The notes under the pieces were generated by a model, which searched no databases, was not told where the DNA came from, and saw only the letters and a program-made list of their open reading frames with translations. Positions 1,621 through 29,946 of a stretch of 64,000 nucleotides of DNA are shown in pieces (within the stretch, counting starts at the first letter, position 1; each line of letters starts with the position of its first letter). The DNA comes from an uncultured Acidobacteriota bacterium. GTDB lineage: Bacteria > Acidobacteriota > UBA6911. The position numbers and the translations under genes are program-made. The DNA lies in contig CAWEJX010000020.1 in the NCBI GenBank assembly GCA_963809485.1, positions 1,280,001 through 1,344,000 of the forward strand. The letters are read 5' to 3'.

Positions 1621-1685
1621 TGAGCAGTTTTGAACAGACGCGTGAGCTGTATTGAACGGACACGCGAATACCCTCAGGGTATAAA
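1621..1685 (+). promoter_or_regulatory. Tandem-site promoter module P1
   Basis: TGAGCAGTTTTGAACA-6-TGAGCTGTATTGAA-CGGACA-17-TATAAA. Confidence 0.85.
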
Positions 1686-1810
1686 TATTATGTATACAGC
1701 CGGAGCCCCAGTTAGCAAGGGCTGGAACTCCACTGCAAGTTGTCAACAGCGCATAACGGAGAGCGGACCTTTTGGCGTCCGCCTCCAAACGCATAATTGG
1801 GAGGTTTATC

Positions 1811-1996
1811 ATGCCTTTAATTAACCTGGTAGTGGTCTTGATCGTGGTGGGCGTACTCCTTTGGCTGGTGAATAACTACATCCCAATGGCCGGCTCAATC
1901 AAAAGAATTCTGAATATCGTCGTAGTAATTGCCGTGGTTTTGTGGCTGTTAAACGCATTTGGAGTTCTTCACTCCCTTTCCGGGCTCCGCATCTAA
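1811..1996 (+). CDS. Small two-TM membrane protein (Thivi_2564-like)
   Basis: GGAGG RBS; MPLINLVVVLIVVGVLLWLVNNYIPMAGSIKRILNIVVV. Confidence 0.8.
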   Translation: MPLINLVVVLIVVGVLLWLVNNYIPMAGSIKRILNIVVVIAVVLWLLNAFGVLHSLSGLRI

Positions 1997-2281
1997 GCGG
2001 AAACTGACGCGCATGGGAAGGTCCCATTTCTGATTATGCCCGGTTTTTTCGCTGGAAACCGGATCAGAAGGCTCAGTAGCTCGGAGAAGAAAAGAATTAG
2101 CTCGGAATGCGTTCATCGAACTGCCGCGAATTAAGCGGATTTTGATATGTGAGGGGTTGCTGCACGGAAGGCGGGAGCCCTCGGATATATGTGGATCTGT
2201 ATCCGATGCCGCAACTCGAGGCGACGAATCCCGTAATCCTTGATTTTTAGGCTCAACTGCTGGAAATGGAAGGAGATTGTC

Positions 2282-2945
2282 ATGGTAGCCCATAAAAGCG
2301 CGCCCATCGATTGGGAAACCTTGCTTGCTGGAATCACCCACGGGAAAACTCTGGTGGAATACGGCGCCGACCGGCGCATCTTCGATCAAGGACAACCCGC
2401 GGATTCCATATTTTATGTTCGAAAAGGCAAGGTGCAAGCTCTCGGTTATATCCCAACAAGGCAAGGAAGCGATCGTCGCCACCCTGAGCGCAGGTGAGTT
2501 CCTCGGCGAGGGATGCCTCGCAGGTCAGCCATTGCGCATGGCAACGGCTACAACGGTCACAGACTGCAATCTCTTCCGGATCGAGAAGCCGCTGATGCTG
2601 CGCATGCTTCACGAGAAGCACGAGATCTCGGAATTATTCGTCGCGCATTTGCTGGTCACGCAATACCCGATACGAAGCGGATCTCGTGGATCAGCTTTTC
2701 AACTCGAGCGAGAAGCGTCTGGCGCGTATTCTCCTGCTGCTCGCTCATTTTGGCAAGGAAAGTAAAGCCGAACCCGTGCTTCCCCGCAGTCAGTCAGGAC
2801 AGTCTGGCACAAATGATCGGCACAACCCGGTCGACGGGTCAGTCATTTCATGAATAAGTTCAGGAAGCTGGGATTTATCGATTACAGCGATAACAACGGG
2901 TTGATGGTCCACAGTGGTCTGCTCAGCGTAGTGTTGCACGACTAG
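2282..2945 (+). CDS. Crp/Fnr-family transcriptional regulator (several frameshifts)
   Basis: cNMP-domain motifs (IFDQGQPADSIFY, GEFLGEGCLAGQPLRMATA), SEKRLARILLLL helix and HTH SQDSLAQMIGTTRS...FMNKFRKLGFIDY spread over different frames. Confidence 0.85.
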
Positions 2946-3216: not shown

Positions 3217-3543
3217 TTACAGCGTATTCCTTGAATCAGAAAAGCCCAAAACGTAACGGTTCCTCGACTCCGCAACCTGCAGATAACGGGAATCGTGTGG
3301 AACGCATCGTGGAGACGAAATATCCACAATGGGGTATTCCAGGATTTCTTCTCTATTTAAATCGGGGCAGCCGGGACAGAGAATGCCTCGAACCTGAAGC
3401 CAGTAAGTTTTGCCTTGGGCCCTGTGCACCGCAAGCATCATCTGCGCAACCTGCTCTTTGGTGTTCATCCACCCGCTCAGTTCTTCAATCCCGTCCCCGC
3501 AAACAATTCTTATCTGATATTCATTGCCGTGGTTGTGCGCCAT
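3217..3543 (-). CDS. Hypothetical protein with CxxC motif
   Basis: ORF MAHNHGNEYQIRIV...CPGC; sits directly downstream of module P2. Confidence 0.6.
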   Translation of the reverse strand: MAHNHGNEYQIRIVCGDGIEELSGWMNTKEQVAQMMLAVHRAQGKTYWLQVRGILCPGCPDLNREEILEYPIVDISSPRCVPHDSRYLQVAESRNRYVLGFSDSRNTL

Positions 3544-3604
3544 GTGTTGTCTCTTTAGCGCCGTATCCATTCAAATTTCATTTTCGACTCCCTGATCCCT
3601 GAAA

Positions 3605-3670
3605 AATCTAACAGGCGGCAACTTGAGGTGTCTGTTCCAAAAAGATCAGGCGTCTGTTCAAAAAGGAACA
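3605..3670 (-). promoter_or_regulatory. Tandem-site promoter module P2
   Basis: Minus strand: TGTTCCTTTTTGAACA-6-TGATCTTTTTGGAA-CAGACA-18-TAGATT. Confidence 0.7.
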
Positions 3671-3944: not shown

Positions 3945-4009
3945 TGAGCAATTTTGACCAGATCCGTGTGTAGTACTGACCTTACATTCGATTTTCCCCG
4001 GAGTAGAAA
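3945..4009 (+). promoter_or_regulatory. Tandem-site promoter module P3
   Basis: TGAGCAATTTTGACCA-6-TGTGTAGTACTGAC-CTTACA-17-TAGAAA. Confidence 0.8.
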
Positions 4010-4124: not shown

Positions 4125-4358
4125 ATGACAACACGGGAGCACCTTGTTTTTGAGCAGCTGAGCACCTTTGAACGCCGTGGATCCGACGCTAGCCCAAATC
4201 CATTGAATGAGGGGATTTTCCGCGCTCAAGTGCCGGGGGGCTGGTTAATATTACTGAAGGCCGACCAGCCAACCCTGCTCTTTTACCCCGACCCGGACCA
4301 TAAGTGGGGCGGCGGGTCCATGCAGGGGGGGTTCAAAAGTGAGCAGAGTGGCGATTGA
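4125..4358 (+). CDS. Hypothetical small protein
   Basis: AGGAGG RBS; RAQVPGGWL...FYPDPDHKW. Confidence 0.6.
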   Translation: MTTREHLVFEQLSTFERRGSDASPNPLNEGIFRAQVPGGWLILLKADQPTLLFYPDPDHKWGGGSMQGGFKSEQSGD

Positions 4359-4380
4359 ATCACGAAACAGGAGGCAGCAA

Positions 4381-4617
4381 ATGACACCGAATAGGACTTT
4401 GCTTACCATCGAATTACTGGCCGAGTTGGCATCGTTTCACCAGATGCCGTGTCTCTCGCTTTATCAGCCGACCCATCGGCGCCGTCCCGAAAATCAGCAG
4501 GACTTGATCCGGTTTCGCAATCTTGTAAAGGAGCTGGAGACATCGCTCCGGCAGAAGTATCCGGCCGTCGAGACCCGGCTTCTTCTGGAACCGTTTAAAG
4601 CCCTCGCTCGCGATCAC
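4381..4617 (+). pseudogene. Truncated baeRF3/baeRF7-like (bacterial archaeo-eukaryotic release factor family) N-terminus
   Basis: AGGAGG RBS; PCLSLYQPTHRRRPENQQDLIRFRNLVKELE, then the similarity stops abruptly. Confidence 0.6.
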
Positions 4618-4790
4618 AAAAGGAAAACACTACGCGAACCCAAATCAATACCGACCGGGACATCGGAGGCAATCGGGATTTGCCTGCCAAAAAACACAAT
4701 TGGCCACTGCCTGCAGAACCGACACTGCAACAATTGGTGGACGAGCACATTCTCAGCGGCAGGCACTGTTGTCACCACAATTAACCGATA

Positions 4791-4855
4791 TGAGCAGTTT
4801 TGACCTGCCACGTGAGCTGTACGGTACTGACACGCAATCTCCCTTAACGTATAAG
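4791..4855 (+). promoter_or_regulatory. Tandem-site promoter module P4
   Basis: TGAGCAGTTTTGACCT-6-TGAGCTGTACGGTA-CTGACA-17-TATAAG. Confidence 0.85.
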
Positions 4856-5217
4856 CAATGTAGCTCGAGTTGCCGGAAAAGAACCGGAGGACAATACGGT
4901 TCCTTAAGGCAAGAGCCTGGAGAATCGCGAGATCGGTAGTCGGATGGTTTTCGGTGTAATTCCAGGAATCACTGGCTTTTTCAAATTCCATGGACCTTTC
5001 AAATCCTAAAGCTGGACCCATAATCCCCAGCTCGGATTTGACACATGAAGCCGACTCATTACTGATAATCAGCAAAGGGGTTGCCCCGTCCAAAGCGGTC
5101 GCGAAGCTGCCTCCTTTGTTAAATTACCACTCGACGCCAGGAATACAAGGCCGCTGGTACTAGTAAGGTTTTTAAAGAGTGAATGTCATGATGTCCAAGT
5201 AAAAGGATGTGAGAAAA

Positions 5218-6901
5218 ATGAGAAGGATAAACATGTTTCTGGCGTTATGCGGCTTGTCCTGCGGTTTGCTGTCCGCACAGGCGCCGCAGGCCGCGGATCC
5301 GACACAGCCGTCGATTCAAAGCCAATCGTTCAGTTCGATACCTATTTATCGCGTCACCGTGGTAGAGCGGACCATGAAGGCCGTAAACTATCAACACCGA
5401 AGCGGCGCCACAAAGATTGATTTCAGCGGCACCGATCTCCTGCCGATGGCTCGCGGCGAGGCCAAAGTGGAGAGCAAAAAGGGCTACATCGAGATCGAGG
5501 TGGAATTTGACGAAATGCAGCCGGCAACCAAGCATGGCGCTGAATGTCTCACCTATGTCCTATGGGCGATCACCCCGGAAGGCCGGACATCCAACCTGGG
5601 CGAGATCCTCCTCGACGGAACCAAAGGCAAGCTGAACGTGACTACCGAATTGCAGGTCTTCGGCCTGGCTGTCACGGCGGAGCCGTACTTCGCGGTTTCC
5701 ATGCCGAGCAACTTGGTCGTGATGGAAAATGTATTGCGCAATGACACGCAGGGCAAGATCGAGGAGATGGACGCCAAGTACGAATTGCTGGAGAGAGGCC
5801 AGTATGAGCGTTTGGCGAATCCGCTGGCGCTGAAAATGGATTCAAAGATGCCTCTGGAACTTTACCAGGCGCGCAACGCCGTCCAGATCGCGCGCGCCAC
5901 AGGCGCAGACCAGTTTGCCTCCGACACCTTTGCCAAGGCCGAGAACAGATTGGATCAGGCCGAGGCATACCAGGCGCGCAACGCGGGGCGCAAACCAGTA
6001 ACGATGACGGCCCGGGAGGCTGTGCAGATTGCGGAAGACTCCAGGGCGATCGCGGTGAAGCGACAGGAAGAAGAGCGTATTGCGAACGAACGCCTGGCGG
6101 GTGCGGACCGCGAAGCGCTGGCCAAAGCAGAGACCGAGGCCGAGGCGCGTCTGAGGGCGCAAGCTGAAAGCGATCAGAGAATGGAGGCCGACCGAAGGGC
6201 GCACTGCTGAGGCCGAACGGAACGCGGCCCAGTCTGAAACCGCGAGGATCAAACTTGATGCAGATGCGGCGCGTGTTGCCGCTCAGATAGAAGCTGATCG
6301 CGTCAAACGCGAGAACGATACGGCGCGAGACGCGGCTCAAGCGGAAGCCAATCGGGCAGCAAGTGCGGCGGCGCAAGCCGAGGCTGACAGAACGCGGCTG
6401 GCAACTCAAGAAGCCGACCGGCTGCGCCTGAAGGCTGAGGCCGAAAAGGCGGAGCTGCGCACTCAGCTGCTAAGCCAGCTTAATCTGGTTCTTGAAACTC
6501 GCGATACGGCCCGCGGCCTTATCGTTAATATGTCGGATGTTCTTTTCGACACAGCCAAGTACACCCTGCGGCCCGAAGCGCGCGAGAGGCTGGCCAAGGT
6601 GGCCGGTGTTCTCCTGGGACACCCGGGCCTAAAGCTTGAGGTCGAAGGCCATACAGACAGTGTGGGAGGTGAAGTGTACAATCAGCACCTCTCCGAACAA
6701 CGAGCCGGATCGGTGCGTGACTATCTCATCCAGCAGGGGATTTCAGGGATGGACTCGATCCCAGCCAAAGGGTTCGGCAAATCACAGCCTGTAGCCACGA
6801 ACGATACCGCCGCAGGCCGGCAGCTCAATCGGCGCGTGGAACTTATTGTCTCCGGCGATCTCATCGGTACTCAGATCGCTTTGTCAAATAGTTCAAGGTA
6901 A
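5218..6901 (+). CDS. OmpA-family protein with coiled-coil (DUF4398-like) region; frameshift near 6200
   Basis: Signal peptide; C-terminal OmpA motifs VLFDT, VEGHTDS, LSEQRA, NRRVE. Confidence 0.85.
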
Positions 6902-7101
6902 GAAGCGCTGACGCCTATTTTTGTTTGCAGAACATGACTGACAAGAAGGCTAATAGGGTGGGGCACGGCTCGCCGTGCCCCAGAATTCCCCATCATTATT
7001 TTACTTCCGAAAGATCCGACCTATGCCCCGTCTTCCTAAAACCCATACCCCACCCGAAGCGGCTCATGCCACGAAGGATTCTCTTTGGAGCAGGGGCTCG
7101 A

Positions 7102-9343
7102 ATGATCTCGCGATTGCAGAGCGCCCGTGCCTTCGTGGTTGGTCGCCCGCGATCCGCAAGGTTGCGCCGCATCGTGCTCTTTGCGGCCGCTCCCCTGGCG
7201 CTGGTCTTGCTTCTCATCTCGGCTGGGTTGATCCACCATGTCTACTTCAATCGCCGCGGGCTCCCGGACATCGAGCGGTTCATCCGTTTCGAGCCCCCCA
7301 CAACGGGCAGGGTCTACGACTCCCGGGGCAAGGTGCTTATAGAACTGGCAAGGGAGTACCGCCGGGTGGTCTCCTACGACGAGGTGCCCGCTATCCTGCG
7401 CCAAGCCGTCCTGGCGGCTGAGGACAAGAATTTCTTCTCCCACTCCGGCGTAGAATACCGTGCGTTGCCGCGGGTGATCCAGAAGACGGCGGTGCGCTCT
7501 CTGGCCTCGTGGCGGAAGGGTGGCGGGTTCCGGCTGCTGTTTCCCCAGGGCGGCTCAACACTTACGCAGCAGCTCGTCCGTGGCTACTTTCTCCAGGACC
7601 GGACTAGCCTCGAAACCGGCGATGTGCTCTTCCGCGAAAGTCTGATCCCGCGGTTCCTCTCGGCGTGCTTGGGGGCGCCGGCCACAAACAAGCTCCTGCG
7701 TAAGCTGGAGGAGGTGCGGCTGGCGCTCTGGCTCGAAGAGGAGATGCGCCGGCGTTACGGATCGAAGGAGCAAGCCAAGCGCGAGATATTCGCCCGCTCC
7801 GCCAGCTTTCTCTACCTGGGCAACGGCCGCTACGGCTTTGCAGCCGCCTCGGAGTATTACTTCGGCAAGCCCCTGTCGAGCTATACGCCGGAGGATGCGG
7901 GCGAGGCGGCGTTGCTCGCGGGGATTACCAAGTCGCCCAGCGTCTACGCCCCGGTCGCGGGGACCCGCGGCCGCGGCGCCGCCGCAACGAAATCCTGGCC
8001 TTGATGGCGCGCAACGGCTACATCCCCGAAAGCCTGGCCGAGCGCTGCCGGGCCAAGCCGATCCGCGTAGCTGCCCGCAGCCAAGTCAAGACCCATGCCC
8101 CTGCCGCGATCGAGAGCGTCTTGGACGAGCTGAAGCAGCACGGCGTCGGACCGATTCGGGATCGAAGACCTCTTCCAGGGGCGGATCTCGGTCCGCTCGA
8201 CCCTCGACGAGCGAGTTCAGACCATCGTGAACGAAGCCCTGGAAAACGGCCTCGCTCGCTACGAAAAGCGGCACCCCGGGGCAAAGGGATCCATCCAAGG
8301 TTCTGTGGTGGCGCTGCACAACGGGAACGCGGCGATCCTGGCCGAGGCAGGCGGGCGTCACGTCTTTAACGACCGCGCTGCGCGCTACTCCGACTACAAC
8401 CGTGTCACGGGCTCACTGCGGCAGCCGGGCTCGGCATGGAAGCCGCTGGTCTACCTGGCTGCGTTCCGCCAGGGCTTGGACCTCTCTACCACGGTGCCCG
8501 ACGAGCCCATCGAGGTGTCCATGGGCGCCGATCAAGGGGGTGAAGTGGATCTCCAATTACGATAATCAGTTCAAGGGGCCGATCCCGATCCGCCAGGCGC
8601 TGGCTGAGTCCCGCAATGCGGTAGCCGTATGGATCACCCGCGAGATCGGCCTGAACAATGTGATCCAGACGGCCCGGGAAATGGGGATTCGCACCCCCCT
8701 GCAGCCTTATATTACAACGGCGCTAGGAGCCTCGGAGGTGCGGCTGCTGGAGCTGGCGGGCGTCTATCGCGCCATGGCCTCCGGGGTCTTGGCGGAGCCC
8801 CACGTCATCGATCGCGTGACAAACGCCTCGGGCATGGTGCTCTATGAGGCTCCTCCGGCAGGACGGTTGATCGACTCTGCTGAGTTGAGCCTGATCCAGG
8901 AGGGGTTGCGCGGCGTGGTTCGCCTTCCGGAGGGCACCGCCCACAGTCTTGACCGCCGCGACTTCCCGATCCCGGTGATGGGCAAGACCGGGACGACAAG
9001 CGACTTTCGCGACGCGCTTTTCGTCGGATCCACTTACGGGACGCAGGGAATCACGGTGGCGGTCCGGATTGGCTTCGATGACAACCGCACGCTGGGCGAG
9101 AAGGAGACCGGGGGGCGCGCGGCGCTGCCGATCTTTCGCGAGATCATGCTCCGAATCTACCAGGACAAACTGTTGGGACCGGCGCCGCATTTCCCCCGCG
9201 AGATCGAGGAAGGAATCGACGAGTACCTGGCAACGCAGGCCTTGCAGAAAGTAGGGCGCGACACACCGCCGCCGTTGGCCTCGACGACAGCCTCATTAGC
9301 TCCGCCAGTGACAGTCTCCAACACTTCTGAAGCCCGGCGGTGA
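7102..9343 (+). CDS. Class A penicillin-binding protein (transglycosylase + transpeptidase); frameshifted
   Basis: AAEDKNFFSH and QGGSTLTQQL; RQPGSAWKP (SxxK), SRN (SxN), GKTGT. Confidence 0.85.
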
Positions 9344-9531
9344 TCCTGAGTAACGGTGGCTGAAACAGATTGCAGCGTTCCGGGGCCTTATCTTGGGGAG
9401 GATGTTCTCACATTCATACCGCCAAGGTCAGCCACCTCCTCTAGCGTTGAAATATGACAACTCTCTGCTGGATGAAGCAGCTTCCCTCCGTTCATTAAAC
9501 CGACACTGAAGTTGTAATAAGTGAGAAGAGA

Positions 9532-9596
9532 TGTGCATAAGTGAACAAACATATGTGTATAAGTGAACAGACATCTGTCTCCGCTCCTTCTATTAT
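9532..9596 (+). promoter_or_regulatory. Tandem-site promoter module P5
   Basis: TGTGCATAAGTGAACA-6-TGTGTATAAGTGAA-CAGACA-17-TATTAT. Confidence 0.75.
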
Positions 9597-9992
9597 GTTA
9601 ATAGGGAAAGGTAGAAGGACGGTCACGCATATTCGTCCACTATATTTCCCTTATGAGTGGGGAGAGATATGGAACACTTATTGATTTTTCTTTTAATATT
9701 GTTTTTGTTTGGTATCGGAACTTGGGATTACTCCCGGTGGCCCAGGTAGCGCTTGCGCGCGATTGGGCAAGGATTCCATTTGGTGCGCTTTAGATGGCAT
9801 AGGATCCGTTTCGTTGGTGTCTAAGCGGCATGACAGCGCCTGATTGGAATCAAACGCCCGGCTATCGCTATCCAAGTGGTCCTGCATGCCTTCGGCGCGG
9901 ATAAGTCTCTCTCGATTTGTGTTCCAAATTTTAATCGATATCGTGTTCTCAGTGTGGGTCCCTTTATTCGAGCACACACTGTGGAGAATGTC

Positions 9993-10151
9993 ATGAAATC
10001 TAGATCTAAGGATGAGGCCAATGGCAATTTTCATAAGGTGAAGGGCAAGAGTGAGAAGCGCTTGCGGAAAGCGATGATGGACCCCACCTTGGAGGGCAAA
10101 GATGAAAATAAAGTCGGGAGGGTCCAAGAAAAAATCGGCCCTGTCGATTAG
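9993..10151 (+). CDS. CsbD-family stress protein (degenerate)
   Basis: MKSRSKDEANGNFHKVKGK...DPTLEGKDENKVGRVQEKIG; paralog of 26147-26326. Confidence 0.6.
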   Translation: MKSRSKDEANGNFHKVKGKSEKRLRKAMMDPTLEGKDENKVGRVQEKIGPVD

Positions 10152-11059: not shown

Positions 11060-11122
11060 AGCCCTTGCATTGAACGCAAAGATGCTTGCACGCACAAAGG
11101 AGAGTCCCATGCATTCGATCCA

Positions 11123-21209: not shown

Positions 21210-21941
21210 ATGAATCGATTCAAAGTTGAGGCGGTGATCCTTTGTTTGGCCCTGGTGGCCTTGGCATTTCCAGTCGCGGCAAAGGCCGACGAATGGAACA
21301 AAAAAACCACCGTCACATTCAGCGCGCCGGTCGAGATTCCGGGTGTAGGAGCCCAGGTGTTGCCGGCTGGCACCTATGTCTTTAAGCTGTTGAATTCACA
21401 ATCCAACCGGAACATTGTTCAAATCTTCAACGAACGGCAAGACCATGTATTTTCAACCATTCTTGCGATTCCAAATTTCCGTTTGCAGGCGACCGATAAA
21501 ACCGTCATGACGTTCAGGGAAAGGGCGTCCGGTGAGCCGGAGGCCATCCGAGCATGGTTTTATCCCGGGAACAGATGGGGTCAGGAATTTGTGTACCCAA
21601 AAGCAAGGGCTATCGAAATTGCGAAGCTGACAAATATACCCGTTCTCGCGATGCCTACGGAACTGGCCACGAACCTTTTGGAACCGGTAAAATCGGCGGA
21701 TGAACCGCCCGTAATAGCTTTGATACAGGCGCCGGTCGAGGCCGTAAAACCTACCGGAGAAGTAGTCGCAATGACTGAAGTCGTTGAGCCACCGCCTGTG
21801 GAGACAGCCGCGGTACAGTCAACGGAGCCTTACCAGAACCTGCCCGAAACAGCCAGCCCAATGGCGCTATTGGGCTTGATTGGTTTGTTATCGCTTGCCG
21901 CAGGCGTTGGTCTTTCAGTAATTTCGAAGCGGCGTGTTTGA
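21210..21941 (+). CDS. Secreted sortase-substrate protein (LPxTA sorting signal)
   Basis: Signal peptide ending AKA; C-terminal LPETAS + TM helix + KRR. Confidence 0.85.
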   Translation: MNRFKVEAVILCLALVALAFPVAAKADEWNKKTTVTFSAPVEIPGVGAQVLPAGTYVFKLLNSQSNRNIVQIFNERQDHVFSTILAIPNFRLQATDKTVMTFRERASGEPEAIRAWFYPGNRWGQEFVYPKARAIEIAKLTNIPVLAMPTELATNLLEPVKSADEPPVIALIQAPVEAVKPTGEVVAMTEVVEPPPVETAAVQSTEPYQNLPETASPMALLGLIGLLSLAAGVGLSVISKRRV

Positions 21942-21996
21942 GCAAGCGAGGTTGTGCGTGCCGTCAAGAGGGGCTCATTGGGGACGTTTAGGCAAC

Positions 21997-22032
21997 GGGT
22001 TCCCCCCCCGCGCGGAAAAGGGGGGGCGACCC
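21997..22032 (+). terminator. GC-rich hairpin between substrate and VWA genes
   Basis: GGGTTCCCCCCCC...GGGGGGGCGACCC; no clear T-tract. Confidence 0.4.
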
Positions 22033-22170
22033 TTAGCGGGGCTATGATAAGACCCTATGCGTGCCCCATGAGGGCAGGCTAGTATGACCTGCCCTCATGG
22101 CTGGTGGGGTTTGTGGCCACGCGCGCGACTCCGGTGCTATCGCTCAGATTCCAAAACTGGACTGGACTGT

Positions 22171-23199
22171 ATGAGAGAGCCTTCCCATGCCGAAGAATTC
22201 CGTTCCAGGGGCAAATGTTTCCCCACAACCCTGTGTCTGGCCTGTTGTTTTTACTTGATTGTTCTGCCAGGCATGTTCCAGCAGCAGGAATACTCCCAGT
22301 CCCAGAGCGGCGAAGGTGACCCGTACACGATTAGCGTAAGCGTTGGCACGGTGGTCTTGAACGCGACCGTGCGTGATCGCAAAGGCATCCTTGTTTCAGA
22401 TCTCGTCAAAGAAGACTTTCAGGTTTATGAGGACGGAATCCCCCAACAAATCGAATGCTTCAGCCACGAAGATATTCCGGTCACCGTGGGCCTGGTCGTC
22501 GACAACAGCGGAACCATGAGGCCGAAACGCCCTGAGGTGATTGCAGCGGCCCTGGCGTTTGCCCACTCCAGCAACCCTGCGGATCAGATGTTCGTGGTTA
22601 ATTTCAACGAGAATGTATCCTTTAGCCTTCCAGACAACCTGCCGTTCACGGACAAAGCGGCTCAACTCGAGATTGCCCTGTCTCGAATTGCCGCGGACGG
22701 CATGACGGCACTCTACGACGCCGTGGCGGCTGCGCTCGATCACCTGAAGAAGGGCGATCGGGACAAAAAAGTGCTGATTGTTATCAGCGATGGGGAGGAT
22801 AACGCCAGCAAACTCAAATTGGACAGGATTCTGGCTCTGGCAGGGCAGTCGGACGCAATCATTTACACCATAGGAATCTTTGATGAGAACAATCCCGATC
22901 GGAACCTTCGGGCGCTCAAGCGGCTGGCAAATGCTACCGGTGGCGAAGCTTTCTTGCCGGGCTCGGCAAAAAACGTTGTCCCCATCTGTGAGCGAATCGC
23001 CTATGACATTCGCAACCAATACTCCATAACCTATCTGCCCACGAATAAAAAGCAGGATGGCAGCTTTCGGGCTATTCAGGTGACGGCCGGAGCACGGGAT
23101 GGCAGACGCCTGTCCGTCCGCACCCGCGCAGGTTACTACGCACCCTTAAAATCTGAATCCTTGCCGACAAGTGAGCAACCCCATGAAAATGCGAATTAG
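22171..23199 (+). CDS. VWA-domain protein (Acidobacterial VWFA type)
   Basis: MIDAS-like DNSGTM, TALYDA, ISDGEDN, TGGEAF, RTRAGYYA. Confidence 0.9.
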   Translation: MREPSHAEEFRSRGKCFPTTLCLACCFYLIVLPGMFQQQEYSQSQSGEGDPYTISVSVGTVVLNATVRDRKGILVSDLVKEDFQVYEDGIPQQIECFSHEDIPVTVGLVVDNSGTMRPKRPEVIAAALAFAHSSNPADQMFVVNFNENVSFSLPDNLPFTDKAAQLEIALSRIAADGMTALYDAVAAALDHLKKGDRDKKVLIVISDGEDNASKLKLDRILALAGQSDAIIYTIGIFDENNPDRNLRALKRLANATGGEAFLPGSAKNVVPICERIAYDIRNQYSITYLPTNKKQDGSFRAIQVTAGARDGRRLSVRTRAGYYAPLKSESLPTSEQPHENAN

Positions 23200-23866
23200 G
23201 TGGATGTCTCTCCCAAGGCGAGATAGTCCATGGCTCCGTTGGAGCCGATACCTTTTCTTTATCATTGGCATTCTTGCGCTGGGCTATGTCGGCTTCGCGC
23301 TGCTCGACGCGCGACTCTATCAGGCGGATCAATCCCGAAGATTTGAGCAGGAGTTGAACGGTTTGAAGTCGAATATCGTCAGCGATGAGCGATTTCACGC
23401 ATCCTCAATTTCTCCAGCGCCTGCGAAAGAAAGCCTCGTGAGAGCTGAGCGCATTGACACAGCAGGCAGCGGTCGAACTGCTTTGGGGCAAATTGAGATA
23501 AGCGCAATAGGCCTCAAAGCAATGATCCTGGAGGGCACAGACGCACGAACATTGCGCCGGGCAGTCGGGCACATCCCCGGCACCGCGCTGCCGGGCCAGC
23601 GAGGGAACGTCGCGATCACGGGACACCGGGACACATTTTTCAGACCGCTGCGCAATATCCGTAAGGACGATGAGATCAGGTTGACGACGCTAAACGGATC
23701 GTACCGATATTGGGTGGACTCTGCCACGGTAGTCGAGCCCGCCAACACGGAAGTACTGGACAATTCCGATGATGCAATTCTGACTCTGGTGACCTGTTAT
23801 CCATTTTATTATGTTGGCCCTGCACCTAAGAGGTTTATTGTCCGCGCACACAGGATTCTGGATTGA
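23183..23866 (+). CDS. Sortase (class D-like)
   Basis: N-terminal TM; GNVAITGHRD (His), LTLVTCYPF (Cys), RFIVRA (Arg). Confidence 0.92.
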   Translation: MKMRIRWMSLPRRDSPWLRWSRYLFFIIGILALGYVGFALLDARLYQADQSRRFEQELNGLKSNIVSDERFHASSISPAPAKESLVRAERIDTAGSGRTALGQIEISAIGLKAMILEGTDARTLRRAVGHIPGTALPGQRGNVAITGHRDTFFRPLRNIRKDDEIRLTTLNGSYRYWVDSATVVEPANTEVLDNSDDAILTLVTCYPFYYVGPAPKRFIVRAHRILD

Positions 23867-23964
23867 GGTTTCCTTCGGAGACTCCAGGATAGCCTGTCAC
23901 TCGGTTTCTCTCTGCTAAGCGGCTCGCCGGATGCTGGCAAATTGCATGTTGCTTTCTCCACTTT

Positions 23965-24110
23965 AAGCATTTCCATGGCCACTGCAGGGCGGGTGATATA
24001 GCGGGCCTGGGACTCCAGAGAGGCGATTGCGGCGGCATCGACCGGCGGCCCGGCATAGACTGAAAATCCCGGGTGTACCCAGGACAACAGATTCTGCATG
24101 AAGGATTCCG
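23965..24110 (-). pseudogene. IS91-like (Y2) transposase remnant
   Basis: LLSWVHPGFSVYAG...LESQARYITRP. Confidence 0.55.
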
Positions 24111-24123
24111 TAATTTATGTGGA

Positions 24124-24188
24124 TGAGCAATTTTGCCCACTCCTCTGAGCAGTAATGGACTGAGATGATTATTGGGCTGGGCTATAAA
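24124..24188 (+). promoter_or_regulatory. Tandem-site promoter module P11
   Basis: TGAGCAATTTTGCCCA-6-TGAGCAGTAATGGA-CTGAGA-17-TATAAA. Confidence 0.8.
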
Positions 24189-24230
24189 GATAAAGCGTTG
24201 AGCTGTCGGTCAGGACGTACGAGGTGGCAT

Positions 24231-25055
24231 ATGCGACAACGAATGATATGGGCGGTGTTTTTCTATCTTGGTGTGGCAGCCTGTTTATCGGCCCAGACTG
24301 AACGCTTCATTCCCCCCATTGAGGACATCATTGCCGGCATGGCGCAAGCCCGGGCAGAAAATCAGGTAAGCTTTCGTTCCTACATTGTCACCCGCAACTA
24401 CAATCTGTTTGGGAAAGAAAGAGCGAAAACCAAGTCCCAGGTGATTGCCGAGATATCCTTCGTTCCCCCGGCCACCAAAACGTACACGATACAAAAAATC
24501 AATGGCACCGGCTTCGGGGAAACAATCGTTCGCCGAATGTTAATGAGCGAGGTGGACATTGCACGAAATTACACCTCAACGGACTTCTCGACGGACAATT
24601 ATGACATCCGTTTCATCCTCGAGGAAAATGTAGGGGATCAACGCTGCTATGTGCTCGAGCTGCTTCCCAAACGAAAAGATAAGAATCTACTGCGAGGGAA
24701 AATTTGGGTTGATGCAGTCACCTACCTGCCCCAGCGCATCGAGGGTGCACCCAGCAAGACCCCCTCATGGTGGCTGCGGAGCTTGCGATTCGAGCTTATT
24801 TACGGCGAGGTCGGCGGAATGTGGCTGCAGACGGCCCTGGAAGCCACCGCCACGGTCCGAATCCTCGGCCCCCACACGATGGTTTCGCACGACGTGAAAT
24901 ACCAGCTGGGCGATCAGGTTGTTGCCGTTCACCCTAAAGCTGCCGGATGGGTTGATTCAGTAGGTCCGGCGATAAGACAGCCGCAGATCAACCATGAGCT
25001 CCCTATATTCGCGGACGGGGTAAAGGCCAAGGCTGCATCCGGGCTTTGGCCATAA
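24231..25055 (+). CDS. Secreted LolA/MucB-like fold protein
   Basis: Signal peptide; CYVLELLPKRKDKNLLRGKIWVDA...RIEG. Confidence 0.7.
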   Translation: MRQRMIWAVFFYLGVAACLSAQTERFIPPIEDIIAGMAQARAENQVSFRSYIVTRNYNLFGKERAKTKSQVIAEISFVPPATKTYTIQKINGTGFGETIVRRMLMSEVDIARNYTSTDFSTDNYDIRFILEENVGDQRCYVLELLPKRKDKNLLRGKIWVDAVTYLPQRIEGAPSKTPSWWLRSLRFELIYGEVGGMWLQTALEATATVRILGPHTMVSHDVKYQLGDQVVAVHPKAAGWVDSVGPAIRQPQINHELPIFADGVKAKAASGLWP

Positions 25056-25256
25056 TCAATTGTGAACAGACGCGTGCTTCCGCCATTAATTGTTGCTGAC
25101 AGGGGTTTAAAGCTATGCAGGAAAAATTATTACAGTCCGATTCGGCGTCAGCCGATCCAGATTGCCTCGAATCTGGTATAAATTCCTTTTTTAGAGGAAG
25201 ATAGCAGGAAGCCAGCAGCAGTCAATGGCGGAAACACCGCCGCCCGTGAAGACGGT

Positions 25257-25321
25257 TGAGCAATTCTGAACACACTCTTGAGCAAGATTGAACTTACTAT
25301 TAAATCCCGCCGGAGTATAAA
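25257..25321 (+). promoter_or_regulatory. Tandem-site promoter module P12
   Basis: TGAGCAATTCTGAACA-6-TGAGCAAGATTGAA-CTTACT-17-TATAAA. Confidence 0.8.
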
Positions 25322-25537
25322 CAGTCAGGCTTCAGCTACAAGCGAGAATCTGGCAGCATGCGCGAAAAGCTGAAGGGTCGCCTGGGCGGCTTTTGGGCCG
25401 AAAAGAGGCGACACGCACCACATCATAGCTTGTAACACACCGGGGAAAAATTGTATCGGAAAGGAATGACTGGCGAAGGTGCCCCTATATTTTCAACCCC
25501 TCTACATTAACCTCAACCAATAAAAAGGAGTTCATCC

Positions 25538-25744
25538 ATGTCAATCGCACGTGTCACTGAAATCAAATCGTCCTCCAAAAAGAGTTTCGATGATGCAATC
25601 AAGTCAGGTCTTGCCCGCGCCGGGAAAACTCTTACGAAGGTGAAATCCGCATGGATCGAGAATCAGGAAGTTCTGCTCGATGACAAAGGACAGGTCTCGG
25701 ATTACCGTGTGCAAATGAAGGTGACGTTTATTCTCGAAGAGTAA
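25538..25744 (+). CDS. Dodecin-family flavin-binding protein
   Basis: MSIARVTEIKSSSKKSFDDAI...YRVQMKVTF; AAGGAG RBS. Confidence 0.9.
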   Translation: MSIARVTEIKSSSKKSFDDAIKSGLARAGKTLTKVKSAWIENQEVLLDDKGQVSDYRVQMKVTFILEE

Positions 25745-26146
25745 TTCGAACTTGATGCCCACCAGCGTTTCCCACCGGTTGCCGTTTAAAAGACGCGATT
25801 CGACGAGGGATCGGTATTTCTACACGGTGGGTGCCGCGACGCGCCCGCAGGCAGCACTCCTTCAATGCCGATCCCTCTGTTACCGCCTGTCTTATTATTT
25901 GCGGCTGGTCAGGGACGTCCCGCACATTTTCGTGCAGGCTGTTTTTGGCTCGCGGGACCGCCGTGCCCTCGATTGCTGCAACACCCTTTCCTCAAAGGCA
26001 GCATCCACTGATCGCCAGCACCGTAAGAACTTTCTTAGTGCAGAGCGATATCCGCGCGGTCTTCCGGGTTTGTGTGGGTAGAAATGGTATAAAGGAACGC
26101 CGTTATGCAAGGTGCCGTTCCTAAGGGTCAAGCGGAGCCTTCCACG

Positions 26147-26326
26147 CTACCCTCCGAGGAATTTCTCCAGTTGGCCGATTTTCTTTTGGACCTTCCCGCC
26201 GATCTTTTCGACCTTGCCTTCGGCTTCCAAATCTGGATCGTTCGTCGCTTGACCAACCTTCTCTTTAACTTTGCCTTTCACCTCGTGAAATGTGCCCTTT
26301 GCCTTGTCCTCTGTGCTTTGCTTCAT
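26147..26326 (-). CDS. csbD: CsbD-family stress protein (59 aa, not in ORF track)
   Basis: MKQSTEDKAKGTFHEVKGKVKEKVGQATNDPDLEAEGKVEKIGGKVQKKIGQ; GGGAG RBS. Confidence 0.85.
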   Translation of the reverse strand: MKQSTEDKAKGTFHEVKGKVKEKVGQATNDPDLEAEGKVEKIGGKVQKKIGQLEKFLGG

Positions 26327-26750
26327 GGATTGTCTCCCTGGTAAATGTAAGATATAATCCAGACTTGGAGCCGTGCTTTGGGGATCAAGCTGCAGTACTG
26401 ACCCGCACGACAGTCCTTTTGCTTCCTACCCAGCATTAGAAGCGACGGTAAAGGAAGCTCTTTGTTCGCCTTTAAACACCCCCTATGCATTGACCCGCAT
26501 TTGGGAATGATATTTGTCAATAGCAGCCCTTATATTGGGTCTACGCACTGGCAGTCGGAAAGGGCTCTCTTTAGCACCGTTCCGTTTGCCGATCCAACTC
26601 AATGGACGTATAGTCGCTATCCGGAAATGTAGGGCACAGTGCACAGCATCATCGCAGGACCCATCTGGCGGATAGTGCTCTGATCCGTGAATGGATAATT
26701 CTCATATGCAAGCCAGCGACTGCCTGATCGGCATCGACATTCTCTTCGGC

Positions 26751-28088
26751 TTACCTCACCTCAATAGACGTAATCCTGTCGTTGAATTCCCCCGCCAGGT
26801 TCGACATATCACCGGTGACAGTCCTGCTGGCGCCGCCAAAGCTCTCATGCTCGTGAACAACCACTCGGGCTCTGCCAAAGATTCGGATGGATGAAATCCC
26901 ATCGTTAAAGCGGTCTTGCACTTTCCGCTGGCCATCGCCGGCGCTCATGCAAAAGCTGTCGCCGCGGTAGTCCGCGTCCATGAAGAAACACGCCCCGTTG
27001 CGGGGTACGCGACCGCCGCTCCAGACTTCGTACTGTCCTCGGGATTGCCCGCCATACTGCCCTTCATATTGGCTCCCTCCGGCGACTTGGAAGGAAGTGA
27101 TCCGGTCGCCCCAAGCGCCCAGATTCGGTGTATCCCGGCTGATAGTCTGGCGCGAACCGTTGAAGCTCTCATTGTCGTAGACTGTTACTTGGGCCCTGCC
27201 AAATACCCGGATCGATGAGATGCTGTCGTTGTATCGATCCCCGATATTCCGCACGCTCTCGTTGCTGCTGACGCAGAAATTCTCTCCCCTGTAATTCTCA
27301 TCCCTGTAGAAACATACACCATCACCGGGTTCGTTGCCGCTGCCCAAGCCTCCGTTTTGTCCTCGGGATAGTCCGCCATACTGTCCTCCATATTGGCGCC
27401 CTCCAGTGACCTGTAAGGAAGAGATCCGGTCGCCCCAAGCGCCCAGATTCGGTGTATCCCGGCTGATAGTCTGGCGCGAACCGTTGAAGCTCTCATTGTC
27501 GTAGACTGTTACTTGGGCCTCTCCAAATACCCGGATCGATGAGATGCTGTCGTTGTATCGATCCCCGATATTCCGCACGCTCTCGTTGCTGCTGACGCAG
27601 AAATTCTCTCCCCTGTAATTCTCGTCCCTGTAGAAACACACACCATCGCCGGGTTCGTTGCCGCGGCCCCAGCCCTCGAATTGTTCCCGGGATTGTCCGC
27701 CGTACTGTCCATCAGATTGGCGCCATGAGGTGCCCTGGAAGGAGGTAATCCGGTCGTTCCAGGCGCCCAGTTTCGGCATATTCCGGCTGACAGTCTGGCG
27801 CGAGCCGGTGAAGCTTTCATCATCGTAGACTGTCACTTCGGCCCTTCCAAAGATCCGGATGGATGAGATCCGGTCGTTGTAACGATCTCCGATATTCCGT
27901 AAACTCTCATTGCTGCTGACGCAAAAATTCTCTCCCTTGTAGTTTTCGTCCGTGTAAAAACACACGCCCTCTTGAGGCTGATTGCCTTTGTTCCGGCTTT
28001 GGCTCTGGGCCTCAAGCCGCGGGCTGAGGATTTGAATCAGGCTTAAAGCCATTAGGGTCAAAAAGGTGAATCCAATCGCTCGTTTCAT
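26751..28088 (-). CDS. Secreted protein with four beta/gamma-crystallin-like domains
   Basis: Signal peptide; four repeats of CFYxDxxYxG...NDxISSIR...xDRITS; GGGGAG RBS before ATG 28088. Confidence 0.85.
   Translation of the reverse strand: MKRAIGFTFLTLMALSLIQILSPRLEAQSQSRNKGNQPQEGVCFYTDENYKGENFCVSSNESLRNIGDRYNDRISSIRIFGRAEVTVYDDESFTGSRQTVSRNMPKLGAWNDRITSFQGTSWRQSDGQYGGQSREQFEGWGRGNEPGDGVCFYRDENYRGENFCVSSNESVRNIGDRYNDSISSIRVFGEAQVTVYDNESFNGSRQTISRDTPNLGAWGDRISSLQVTGGRQYGGQYGGLSRGQNGGLGSGNEPGDGVCFYRDENYRGENFCVSSNESVRNIGDRYNDSISSIRVFGRAQVTVYDNESFNGSRQTISRDTPNLGAWGDRITSFQVAGGSQYEGQYGGQSRGQYEVWSGGRVPRNGACFFMDADYRGDSFCMSAGDGQRKVQDRFNDGISSIRIFGRARVVVHEHESFGGASRTVTGDMSNLAGEFNDRITSIEVR
27100..27970. 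repeat. Tandem intragenic repeats, 324-bp period
   Basis: Sequence at 27121 recurs almost identically at 27445. Confidence 0.85.
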
Positions 28089-28183
28089 ATACGTCTCCCC
28101 TCTGCTTTTGCAGATGCAACGATTTCTCTTGGTAAGATTAGTGCGGCAACCCGGATTGTTGTTTAGCCCCCCTGTGTTAACCC

Positions 28184-29642
28184 CAATACTGTTCACTTAA
28201 TGAGTCGGATATGATTCTCAACCACTATCCACTTCGTTCTCGCTCGCTTACGCGGCCGCAGCGGATAATTGCTCATCTTTCGTTTGAGGCCGCGAGGATT
28301 GCTCCGCGATCGGCTAGATACGACGCGCTCTTGCAGGATCTCCATCAATACCGCCTCATGGAATGCTTTCCTGTCCCGAGGGGGGAATTGACGCGAACCG
28401 CGCGATTTTCCTGCGGACCACGCGGACCGCGTGCAGGAATGAAAGTGTATCCGGATCTTCGTTGGCCTTCAACGCCGCCTCGTGCATCAGTCCGCGGATG
28501 GCGAAGTGCGCCATCATCAATCCGTAAAATTCTTGCTGCACCAGATCTGGGGTTTTGCTTCGTAAGACAATCCGGGAGCCGCGCAAATGCGTCTTGAGTT
28601 CGTCCAAGGCCGTTTCGATTTCCCATCGTTCATGATAAAGCGCCGCCAACTCAATCGCCGGGGCGGCCTCGTGATCCAAAATCGTTGTCAGCAGCCGGTA
28701 GATAGGTTCGGCTCCGGGAATCCCCTCCAGCCTATATTCGACAACGCGAACAGTCACTCCATTCTGACCATGCCGCTGATCCTTGGGCGACTCATAAATC
28801 CTGCTCAGGTACGAGCCGTCGGGCAGACGTTTCTCGCACGGAAGGCGCAGATTCTTTTTTACCCTCCAGAGCAGGTCTGCGCCGGTCGAACGTGCCTGAT
28901 TCCACAACGCAAATCCAAAGAAGTTTCGGTCGGCAAGACACAGCATCCCTTTGGCCAAAGAAGACAATACTTGTTTGGCCAGGGTAATCTCTCCCGTGTC
29001 TACTCCTCCCATCCGGGTTCCAAACAACACGTGAGTTCCATTTTCAACCAGGGATACGAAGCGAATCTGGGGAAACGCACTCTTGCCTCGGCTGGCGGAA
29101 GGCCGGCCAAACGACTTTGCATTATCTTTTTCGTCTGCGGTATCCAAAGTGCTGCCATCTATGCTGACCAGACGCCACCTGCGATACCATGCCCCTTGGG
29201 TCGACTCGACAGCAATAGGTTTCACAATCCTGTCGTGCAATCGCTGGAGTGGTTCCCATCCCAGACGTGTACGCGCCTGAGAAATACCGGACTTGCCCGT
29301 CACCTTGACAGTGGCCCCCGGTCCCAGAAGCCACTGGATGCCTTCAAAAAGGCAGCGCAGCACCTCGCGGTAGGAGGACTGCATGTACAAGGCCAATGCG
29401 ATTACATAGTAGACAACCACGTGAGCGGGCAGATCCCTTTGTCTTACGCTGGCTTTGCCCGTACCGCGGAGCACAGCCTGGATTGCAGCGGGCGGAAACG
29501 TCTTTGTCAGTACCCCCAGGCTGATGAAATCGGTTATACGTGTGCCGCTGGGGAGTTCAGCAATAGTTCGTGCCATAAGTGGTCCTCCTGTCAAATTTAT
29601 TGACAGGATACCACAGATTACACTGTTAAGTGAACAGTATTG
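28184..29642 (-). mobile_element. Complete IS4-family insertion sequence (1459 bp)
   Basis: Perfect 17-bp TIR CAATACTGTTCACTTAA; 10-bp target duplication GTGTTAACCC at 28174-28183 and 29643-29652. Confidence 0.95.
28356..29576 (-). CDS. IS4-family DDE transposase
   Basis: IDGST, LADRNF, YHERWEIE (YREK) motifs. Confidence 0.93.
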   Translation of the reverse strand: MARTIAELPSGTRITDFISLGVLTKTFPPAAIQAVLRGTGKASVRQRDLPAHVVVYYVIALALYMQSSYREVLRCLFEGIQWLLGPGATVKVTGKSGISQARTRLGWEPLQRLHDRIVKPIAVESTQGAWYRRWRLVSIDGSTLDTADEKDNAKSFGRPSASRGKSAFPQIRFVSLVENGTHVLFGTRMGGVDTGEITLAKQVLSSLAKGMLCLADRNFFGFALWNQARSTGADLLWRVKKNLRLPCEKRLPDGSYLSRIYESPKDQRHGQNGVTVRVVEYRLEGIPGAEPIYRLLTTILDHEAAPAIELAALYHERWEIETALDELKTHLRGSRIVLRSKTPDLVQQEFYGLMMAHFAIRGLMHEAALKANEDPDTLSFLHAVRVVRRKIARFASIPPSGQESIP

Positions 29643-29881
29643 GTGTTAACCCGCATTATTCAGTGCGCCCCAACTGCGGCGGATCCGGGCATGTCTACCG
29701 CGTTGCACTCCGTCGGGCTCCTCGACGTACTGTCGAGTGCGTCTGCGGGGCCCTCGGCCGCGCACCGGTTAGCGCAGCGGCGAATCCATGCCCGTCTGCG
29801 CCGCCTCGCTACGAACCTTCATGAATAATGCAAGCGAAAGGTTGTGCGCCTGGCCAGATACTGGCTGGCATCTGAAGATAT

Positions 29882-29946
29882 CTTTTATCATTGCGGGAAT
29901 CTGGCGTCAGTTCAATACAGCTCATATCCATGGCCAGAATTGCTCG
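29882..29946 (-). promoter_or_regulatory. Tandem-site promoter module P13
   Basis: Minus strand: CGAGCAATTCTGGCCA-6-TGAGCTGTATTGAA-CTGACG-17-TAAAAG. Confidence 0.8.

Follow-up and report, generated by a model that had tools for sequence, protein, structure and literature searches.

We analyzed a 64,000-nucleotide stretch of DNA from an uncultured Acidobacteriota bacterium (contig CAWEJX010000020.1, positions 1,280,001 to 1,344,000; hereafter called the window), in which a promoter module of about 65 bp recurs. Each module consists, in this order, of a distal 16-mer, six unconserved bases, a proximal 16-mer, a spacer, and a TATAAA-like hexamer, and the last two bases of the proximal 16-mer are at the same time the start of a CTGACA-like -35 element. 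The comparison of genomes indicates that the regulon marked by these modules is real, that it is conserved in uncultured Acidobacteriota, and that it belongs to a new Crp subfamily, with the assignment of the regulator coming from comparative genomics. We propose, with a probability of about 0.68, that the modules are sigma-70-type promoters, each preceded by two sites for this distinct Crp/Fnr subfamily, which would act as an activator.

How far do the modules stand beyond chance? We built a 45-nt weight matrix from 13 window copies listed in an earlier, sequence-only reading, all of which were found at the places and on the strands that it had given. Both strands of the genome (6,035,645 bp in 21 contigs; the window is C20:1280001-1344000) were scanned with this matrix, and the reversed and the complemented genome served as controls. 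The scan yields 28 matches of at least 10 bits, 22 of which reach at least 26 bits, as compared to four matches in the controls, the best at 13.8 bits; the leave-one-out scores of the 13 copies are 29.4-60.1 bits. One match, which would be a third unit at 18387-18424 (26.2 bits), is the copy at 18365 shifted one unit out of register and not a separate site. With this match removed, 21 tandem sites of 26-64 bits are left in the genome: the 13 copies, a weak 14th in the window (18205-18141(-)), three upstream of the window, three on contig C4, and one on contig C6 (Table 1). The matrix finds no window site beyond 29946, in agreement with the earlier statement that none follows after 30 kb, and for all 21 sites the start of a same-strand open reading frame (ORF) is found 70-420 nt downstream.

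The spacing of the two units is equally strict. In this genome, the same-strand pairs found with a single-unit matrix at distances of up to 60 bp are exactly 22 bp apart in 21 of 21 cases. The lone 16-mer pattern is weak, with 79 matches (up to three mismatches) against a shuffle mean of 53, and one of 100 shuffles reaches 79. It is the tandem architecture, not the single 16-mer, that stands far beyond chance.

To describe the module, we pooled 81 non-redundant sites, 21 from this genome and 60 from relatives. The relatives' sites were found by the matrix, and therefore the conservation at positions 0-44 is partly built in, while the positions beyond 44 are independent. The consensus of the window copies is aTGAGCAaTTtTGAcCA-N6-TGAGCnGTAnTGAACT, and that of the distal 16-mer can also be written TGAGCAaTTtTGAcCA. 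The skeleton of the unit is TG..CA-N4-TG..CA, with inner bases that are consistently asymmetric. The units had been called imperfect palindromes, and this is correct in part: five of the eight mirrored position pairs are complementary in the consensus, but the pairs 3/14 and 4/13 consistently are not, in either the distal or the proximal unit. On the left, positions 3 and 4 are A (73/81) and G (71/81), and on the right, position 14 is A (77/81) and position 13 is C (49) or A (28); the bases that a palindrome requires, C at position 13 and T at position 14, are found in 1 and 4 of the 81 sites, respectively. In the 5-6-5 layout of CRP, the unit reads TGAGC-N6-GAmCA. The promoter-distal half, TGAGC, is strong, and the promoter-proximal half, which on the other strand reads TGGTC, TGTTC or AGTTC, is consistently weaker. 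In all 81 sites, this asymmetry has the same orientation with respect to the promoter. A heterodimer of two paralogs was considered as the cause of the unequal halves and is not supported, since most paralogs have the same recognition helix and only a small branch differs.

The -10 region lay outside the search matrix. A TATAAT-like hexamer (at least 4/6, with A at position 2) stands 16-18 bp after the -35 element in 72 of the 81 sites, and in 54 of 60 when the relatives alone are counted, as compared to 3-8 of 81 in control windows shifted by 10-80 bp. At -10, TATAAA (22) and TATAAG (14) are the commonest hexamers, and at -35 it is CTGACA (28); of the 81 spacers, 49 have a length of 17 bp and 20 a length of 18 bp. 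For the 13 window copies, the earlier spacer count (17 bp, with one 16 and one 18) stands for the ten copies with 17 bp, for 18365 with 16, and for 3605-3670(-) with 18, but the copy at 29946(-) is ambiguous. Judged by their hexamers and spacing, the modules are sigma-70-type promoters. The geometry relative to -35 and -10 is as first described, and if transcription starts 7 nt after the -10 element, the unit centres are at -41.5 and -63.5. Moreover, the position of the proximal unit relative to the -35 element is identical in all 81 sites across genera.

Which protein reads these sites? The sequence-only reading had pointed to a Crp gene in the window, to be repaired for binding experiments. 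This copy changes frame at least three times as assembled, and the intact regulator gene lies outside the window, at C20:1272653-1273357 (Table 1). The window paralog belongs to the motif-linked subfamily and is 57% identical, over its best segment, to the B-type copy in L005. The candidate regulator (L001:10650-11357(-)) contains the cyclic nucleotide (cNMP)-binding-type domain PF00027 (72.2 bits, E 3.6e-20; cut-off 27.5) and the Crp-type helix-turn-helix PF13545 (42.8 bits, E 5.3e-11; cut-off 27). Its best PDB matches, with E values of about 1e-19, are GlxR, to which it aligns over residues 33-218, and M. tuberculosis CRP, to the chains of which it aligns over residues 47-219. All 10 matches to NCBIfam equivalogs are far under the cut-off, the best being CRP with 60.4 bits against 266. 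As no equivalog is reached (CRP, NtcA, FNR, FixK, LdrP, PtrA and others), the protein is a Crp/Fnr-family member outside every described subfamily. Its recognition helix, TTRSRVSHFMNRF, hardly varies among the members of its subfamily; it departs from CRP at the DNA-reading positions, and reads RSRVSH where GlxR has RETVNK; the DNA-contacting Glu of the CRP type is thereby replaced by Ser. This changed helix fits a new DNA specificity.

The distribution of the subfamily follows that of the sites. Of 40 relatives, 24 belong to the same genus, and 13 of these carry the tandem pattern (up to three mismatches; the backwards control is 0 in nearly all genomes), as do 3 of the other 16, one of which has a single match that is equalled by the backwards control. 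Twelve of the 13 pattern-bearing genomes of the genus encode a Crp ortholog of at least 63% identity, the exception being 84% complete, and none of the 11 genus genomes that lack the pattern does. In a survey of 136 genomes of the class, with an ortholog threshold of E <= 1e-60, the ortholog is present in 37 of the 40 genomes with at least two pattern matches, in 4 of the 17 with one match, and in 2 of the 79 with no match, both of these being only 53-57% identical. Consistently, at least one site occurs in 22 of 24 loci around orthologs that are at least 67% identical, and the 34 loci scanned in all (540,676 bp) contain 65 site matches, against 0 in the reversed and complemented controls. No tandem sites were found in five loci of unrelated Crp genes, nor in five loci with orthologs of 50-62% identity (L025, L027, L029-L031). 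In the relatives, the first ORF downstream of a site is a Crp paralog in 6 of 57 cases, and many loci carry two Crp paralogs side by side. The proposal of a Crp-family regulator is thus borne out as very probable: one Crp subfamily co-occurs with the sites across the 136 genomes and adjoins or follows them in most loci, and this comparison singles it out as their probable reader. All of the close orthologs found belong to uncultured Acidobacteriota genomes.

Two side observations concern this protein family. A side branch, always directly behind a tandem site (L009:10838-11509, L011:3672-4334, L028:12566-13018, and C4:412999-413668, the membership of the last being probable), has the recognition helix TTRSQISRLLQKF or TTRSLVRRFRDKF instead of TTRSRVSHFMNRF; its target site may differ, and it may make up a second tier of the circuit. 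In addition, distant orthologs (50-56% identical, with the same recognition helix) lie near single units of the form TGAGC-N5-TGAmC, often followed by AGC. Units with the exact pattern number five in L027 and one each in L030 and L031, and zero in five unrelated control loci; no convincing -10 element could be placed by eye behind the units of L027, L030 and L031. The single unit may be an older form, and the tandem a later invention.

The modules had been described as a physically clustered island of about 30 kb. They are indeed clustered, and such clusters recur in other genomes, but the start of the island lies some 5.4 kb before that of the window, and other contigs carry four more tandem sites; 17 of the 21 sites fall in 35.3 kb (C20:1274642-1309947). 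Elsewhere, a 49-kb stretch of a single contig in genome G111 contains 15 listed sites, about 23 sites fall within 71 kb in G112, and runs of sites likewise occur in G091, G106, G040 and L020. The pattern counts reach 40 matches per genome, and the pattern spans three families of the class. Within the genus, at least two matches are present in 16 of 29 genomes, and this patchy presence points to gain or loss of the island as a block. Could the module then be a mobile or duplicated promoter cassette, uniform through common descent and without a shared regulator? The clustering, the restriction to part of the genus, and the IS4 and DDE transposase genes at the right edge of the island (28356-31206) would suit such a cassette. 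However, only the functional positions are conserved in the 81 sites, and N4, N6, spacer and flanks are near random; the same position-specific pattern extends over the three families; orthologous genes retain the module in different genomes; and at 54.7% the island is unremarkable in its GC content (38-kb windows, 55.6 +/- 1.6%; 23rd percentile). We consider uniformity by descent alone barely credible, and a mobile cassette or recent transfer was rejected on the ordinary GC content and the unconserved neutral positions.

What do the modules control? The families of the downstream genes, here and in the relatives, bear out the stress and envelope content that had been read from the window. Besides the targets in Table 1, YtxH stands behind sites twice in this genome, once followed by Crp and once by an SPFH protein, and further targets outside the listed window modules are a peptidoglycan-binding protein and GroES-GroEL. 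One site precedes a B12-radical-SAM enzyme and then a 2,949-residue protein of the GH94 glucan synthase/phosphorylase type, and several targets are small ORFs without a family. In the relatives, the recurring first genes encode B12-radical SAM (6), Crp (6), YtxH (3), Cpn10 (3), OmpA-type (3), and STAS (3) proteins, and those found once each encode BON, catalase, superoxide dismutase, an old-yellow-enzyme reductase, an RNB nuclease, a sugar transferase, and PAS-GGDEF-EAL. The OmpA-type orthologs stand behind sites in L006, L017 and L020, and the PAS-GGDEF-EAL gene has an orthologous arrangement in L005. Judged by these families, the gene set has the composition of a general programme for stress, dormancy and the envelope.

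Several points weigh against an activator of this Crp subfamily, and we discuss them together with the explanations that they would favor. First, a homodimer would favor symmetric sites, and the units are not symmetric. The TGAGCA/TGAmCA hexamers at positions 0, 10, 22 and 32 are equally open to a reading as four direct repeats, a pattern of the OmpR/PhoB type. A response regulator of the OmpR/PhoB or NarL/DosR type would then occupy the repeats head-to-tail, and the Crp genes would be mere members of the regulon. As direct repeats the hexamers match each other 5/6, no unit is palindromic at its inner dinucleotides, and the regulon content resembles a dormancy regulon. Moreover, a CheB-CheR-PAS histidine kinase and a LuxR-type regulator adjoin Crp here and in 7-8 related loci. 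However, of the 40 relatives, 15 of which have at least two motif matches, only one has a close ortholog (84% identity) of the adjacent LuxR-type gene, and no other response-regulator gene recurred at the islands among 11 neighbouring proteins tested in a search that was not exhaustive, while the Crp subfamily tracks the motif closely. We therefore regard a response regulator as a quite improbable reader. The LuxR-type regulator itself (L001:5620-6270) was rejected as the general reader, its other matches in the 40 relatives being at most 50% identical and occurring with and without the motif alike.

The neighbouring genes merit an observation of their own. At L001:5620-10038 (C20:1267620-1272038), a 1,255-residue CheB-CheR-PAS-HisKA_3 kinase and the LuxR-type response regulator are encoded directly beside the intact Crp gene. 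This pair may feed signals into the system.

Second, in the cNMP pocket of the candidate regulator, Met replaces the Ser/Thr that follows the phosphate-binding Arg in GlxR. Third, at least two matches occur without the ortholog in three genomes: G018 (84% complete), G099 (97% complete), and G067, which is 65% complete and whose three-mismatch matches may be chance. The co-occurrence table also overstates the support, because related genomes are not independent. Fourth, 57 single units of at least 14 bits lie outside the tandems, as compared to 10 control matches in total. The regulon may thus be less clustered than the tandem sites suggest, with some single units being real single-site promoters; a part of this excess may come from coding sequences that start with ATGAGC.

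Fifth, most copies match TTGACA at 5/6 and TATAAT at 5/6 with the optimal 17-bp spacer. Many promoters might consequently fire unaided, which would suit a repressor covering the -35 element. In such a scheme, two dimers of the Crp subfamily would cooperatively cover about -71 to -34 and hide the -35 element of strong sigma-70 promoters until stress or a ligand releases them. GlxR, the closest solved homolog by sequence, is both a repressor and an activator, and autoregulated repressors are common. Nevertheless, the operator position is identical in the 81 sites across genera, while repressor operators usually wander over -35, -10 and the start. In addition, modules with a poor -35 element (CCAATA, CAAATA, CCAACA) and a weak -10 element (TAGCAT) are kept in three genomes; those of the CCAATA/TAGCAT type are C4:417306 in this genome and its counterparts in L009 and L014, and they would be weak promoters with nothing to repress. 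A repressor is accordingly an unlikely, though not negligible, explanation.

We favor activation because the register of the sites with the -35 element is fixed in the 81 sites, as contact with the polymerase demands, and because those conserved modules whose hexamers are poor would, unaided, be weak promoters. Among the readings that involve the Crp subfamily, these features would favor activation over repression by about two to one. The 22-bp distance between the units is close to two helical turns, and thus both units face the same side of the DNA. Two Crp dimers would bind side by side on them, and the proximal dimer would contact RNA polymerase in the manner of a class II activator. This contact would switch on about 20 transcription units for stress, chaperone, envelope and signalling proteins. 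Since regulator genes lie in the island and paralogs often stand behind sites in the relatives, the circuit probably feeds back on itself.

The RNA signal comes from one freshwater metatranscriptome, with contigs of related strains that are 93-99% alike and cover parts of window positions 9000-27000. From before to after the module, the contig depth rises from 0 to 55 at 16175, from 4 to 310 at 20964, and from 4.7 to 104 at 25257; the assembled contigs show neither starts nor strands, and non-coding DNA may drop under the 93% likeness cut-off. Just before 16255, 9 nt past the predicted start, one contig ends in an adapter-like sequence. On the opposite side of the balance, the depth is near zero after the modules at 10759, 18365 and 24124. 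Three raw-read RNA runs gave 1, 5 and 2 matching reads. The RNA depth is compatible with the promoter model, and no more than that. As a separate observation, the highest depth, 3,444 at 16813-17413, is at least 10 times that of any other bin of the 18 kb and lies over the Hsp20-like ORF at 17080-17439 (-).

Two further features of the promoter region were noted. The tetramer GAAT occupies module positions 46-49 (about -26 to -23; for example, window positions 13304-13307) in 48-53 of the 81 sites, outside the matrix; sigma-70 promoter spacers are normally not conserved. Furthermore, about 10-15 of the 81 promoters have a common leader, ..CCA.CC...ATCTGGTGGGAGGCGG, 15-50 nt after the -10 element, which carries a Shine-Dalgarno-like GGGAGG far upstream of the start codon. 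A structured leader RNA was considered and is not supported: RNAalifold on 10 leaders gives -2.95 kcal/mol with a compensatory change in 2 of 7 pairs, and only the sequence conservation is left. Rfam covariance models gave 0 matches at E <= 0.1 in window positions 1-32000. The leader may serve as a second operator, as a standby site for ribosomes, or as an element that stabilises the 5' end.

In a bolder extension of the promoter model, the Crp subfamily would be the master switch of a general stress or dormancy response in a large group of uncultured soil and freshwater Acidobacteriota; with a new DNA specificity and a rigid class II arrangement of two dimers, it would act on a regulon kept as a 35-70-kb island. 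We put forward this extension tentatively, at clearly less than even odds. If it is true, a Crp subfamily does the job that SigB, RpoS or EcfG does elsewhere, an island of up to about 40 separately promoted units has been kept over family-level evolutionary time, and the several regulator copies in the island would give the circuit feed-forward or positive feedback. Soil harbours few bacteria more abundant than the Acidobacteriota, yet hardly anything is known of their gene regulation because few of them grow in culture. What is gained here is a readable regulatory code, with a 16-bp unit, a fixed 22-bp tandem and a fixed -35 register; a named candidate regulator with an unusual recognition helix; and a gene list of about 20 units, with up to 40 motif matches in one relative. 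A stress or dormancy programme thereby becomes testable with purified protein and synthetic promoters, and the regulon becomes traceable in metatranscriptomes. It is unusual that a regulon is physically clustered across three families with each unit retaining its own promoter, and that a Crp-type site has an asymmetry of constant orientation.

Table 1. Tandem modules, Crp/Fnr genes, single units and shared leaders (window positions unless a contig or locus is given; PBP, penicillin-binding protein)
Feature	Position	Strand	-35	Spacer (bp)	-10	Bits	Targets and remarks
1621 module	1621-1685	+	CGGACA (1657-1662)	17	TATAAA (1680-1685)	59.5	Units 1621-1636 and 1643-1658; Thivi_2564-family small membrane protein gene (1772-1996), then Crp paralog
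3605 module	3605-3670	-	CAGACA	18	TAGATT	42.7	Degenerate units TGTTCCTTTTTGAACA, TGATCTTTTTGGAACA; 117-aa ORF 3217-3570 without family match; divergent from 3945 module
3945 module	3945-4009	+	CTTACA	17	TAGAAA	50.2	Small ORFs 4125-4358 and 4339-4803 without family matches
4791 module	4791-4855	+	CTGACA	17	TATAAG	52.9	DUF4398/OmpA-type gene 5209-6901 (split as assembled), then class A (transglycosylase/transpeptidase) PBP 6925-9343 (three ORFs)
9532 module	9532-9596	+	CAGACA	17	TATTAT	41.4	Variant units TGTGCATAAGTGAACA, TGTGTATAAGTGAACA; toward weak CsbD-like ORF 9876-10151
10759 module	10759-10823	+	CGGACA	17	TATAAA	54.2	Next clear gene M48 peptidase, about 11266-13087
13259 module	13259-13323	+	CTGACA	17	TATTAA	62.8	70-aa ORF 13387-13599, DUF202-like ORF, BrkB/YihY gene 14003-14995, AI-2E family transporter gene 15005-16081
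16175 module	16175-16239	+	CTGACA	17	TATAAA	53.4	Predicted start about 16246; lmo0937/DUF5670-family membrane protein gene 16258-16461
Weak 14th site, absent from the earlier list	18141-18205	-	poor		poor	26.1	Units TGAGCAATAGGGAACA, TGTGCGATTGTGAACA; divergent from 18365; 75-aa ORF 17957-18184, Hsp20-like ORF 17080-17439
18365 module	18365-18428	+	CAGACG	16	CATAAT	53.1	PAS-GGDEF-EAL gene 18599-20464
20964 module	20964-21028	+	CTGACA	17	TATAAA	63.7	LPxTATN sorting-signal protein gene 21210-21941, VWA protein gene 22084-23199, sortase gene 23171-23866
24124 module	24124-24188	+	CTGAGA	17	TATAAA	48.2	LolA-like gene 24198-25055
25257 module	25257-25321	+	CTTACT	17	TATAAA	47.3	Dodecin gene 25538-25744 and small ORFs
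29884 module	29884-29946	-	CTGACG	15 or 17	GATAAA (15) or TAAAAG (17)	47.5
Tandem site upstream of window	C20:1274642	-					Matrix scan; the three upstream sites lie 0.1-5.4 kb from the window
Tandem site upstream of window	C20:1274753	+					Matrix scan
Tandem site upstream of window	C20:1279863	-					Matrix scan
Tandem site on C4	C4:402185	-					Matrix scan; the three C4 sites lie within 15 kb
Tandem site on C4	C4:412705	-					Matrix scan
Tandem site on C4	C4:417306	-					Matrix scan
Tandem site on C6	C6:273911	-					Matrix scan
Intact Crp/Fnr gene, 235 aa	C20:1272653-1273357	-					1.3 kb downstream of the 1274642(-) site, after ytxH and an 83-aa ORF
Crp/Fnr paralog in window	about 2264-2942	+					Behind 1621 module; at least three frame changes as assembled
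Crp/Fnr copy on C4	C4:412999-413668	-					One frame change; just upstream of the C4:412705(-) module
More distant Crp/Fnr copy	C4:420043-420930
Single unit outside tandems (example)	C20:1062888	+					Single-unit matrix, at least 14 bits
Single unit outside tandems (example)	C17:23931	+					Single-unit matrix, at least 14 bits
Single unit outside tandems (example)	C4:265980	-					Single-unit matrix, at least 14 bits
Single units near distant orthologs	L027:4634, 10817, 12882, 13559(-), 14614(-)
Single unit near distant ortholog	L030:1521
Single unit near distant ortholog	L031:9054
Shared leaders in window	13334-13383; 21039-21088
Shared leader	L001:12829-12878
Shared leader	L005:6801-6850	-
Shared leader	L006:3044-3093
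Shared leader	L007:6439-6488	-
Shared leader	L015:89-148	-
Shared leader	L020:14175-14224
Shared leader	L024:11783-11842	-
Shared leader	L032:12334-12383

At the right edge of the island, an IS4 transposase gene (28356-29594) stands between the 29946(-) module and a beta/gamma-crystallin repeat gene (26751-28196, 481 amino acids), and has probably cut this promoter off from the gene that it first served. Another DDE transposase fragment is found at 30379-31206. Many genes of the region are split into adjacent ORFs in different frames with conserved protein sequence (window 2264-2942, 5209-6901, 6925-9343 and 11266-13087; C4:412999-413668), a pattern for which indel errors of the assembly are no worse an explanation than true pseudogenes.

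How does this system relate to known ones? A literature search, with subscription journals outside its coverage, found no description of the site or of the regulator. The main text of a survey of CRP/FNR target motifs (PMC3590769) contains no mention of Acidobacteri-, TGAGC, tandem or half-site. The half-site, its constant asymmetry, the fixed 22-bp tandem in every promoter, and the conserved regulon island appear to be new.

The class II CRP and FNR promoters of E. coli, among them those with tandem CRP or FNR sites, share much with the modules. Their regulators likewise combine a cNMP-type domain with a Crp-type helix-turn-helix; the 16-bp core with the 5-6-5 layout is the same, with T1 G2 .. 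C15 A16 kept; and the proximal site overlaps the -35 element, with its centre at -41.5 by the -10 rule and a second site upstream on the same helix face. In contrast, the half-site here is TGAGC, and not TGTGA or TTGAT. The promoter-proximal half is systematically degenerate and a well-conserved -35 element is retained, the second site is fixed at -63.5 where the usual class I position of CRP is -61.5, and nearly all targets lie in one island. The recognition-helix Glu of CRP and GlxR is Ser here.

SdrP of Thermus thermophilus and DdrI of Deinococcus radiodurans are, like the candidate regulator, Crp-family proteins, and both are tied to stress and work without cyclic AMP. SdrP has a stationary-phase role. 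To our knowledge, which here rests on no dedicated search, neither rigid tandem sites nor a regulon island has been reported for SdrP or DdrI. The candidate regulator is related to them at the family level only, and their sites are CRP-like palindromes. DNA binding by DdrI is reported to be independent of cyclic AMP (PMC11253593), and a Crp is reported to act in the stress responses of D. radiodurans (PMC4868304).

Likenesses in layout are also found with two response regulators. In the Pho boxes of PhoB, direct repeats of about 10-11 bp abut or replace the -35 element, at a fixed position in every promoter of the regulon. Here, by contrast, a recognisable -35 element is kept and the spacing of the unit pairs, 10-12-10, is uneven; a search of response regulators, which was not exhaustive, revealed no winged-helix member linked to the sites. 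DosR/DevR of Mycobacterium tuberculosis has the same layout, with tandem boxes about two turns apart, the proximal one over the -35 element, and with alpha-crystallin and stress genes that are partly clustered. DosR, however, is a NarL-type response regulator that binds 20-bp palindromes, whereas in the Acidobacteriota it is the Crp subfamily that tracks the motif and the LuxR-type neighbour that does not.

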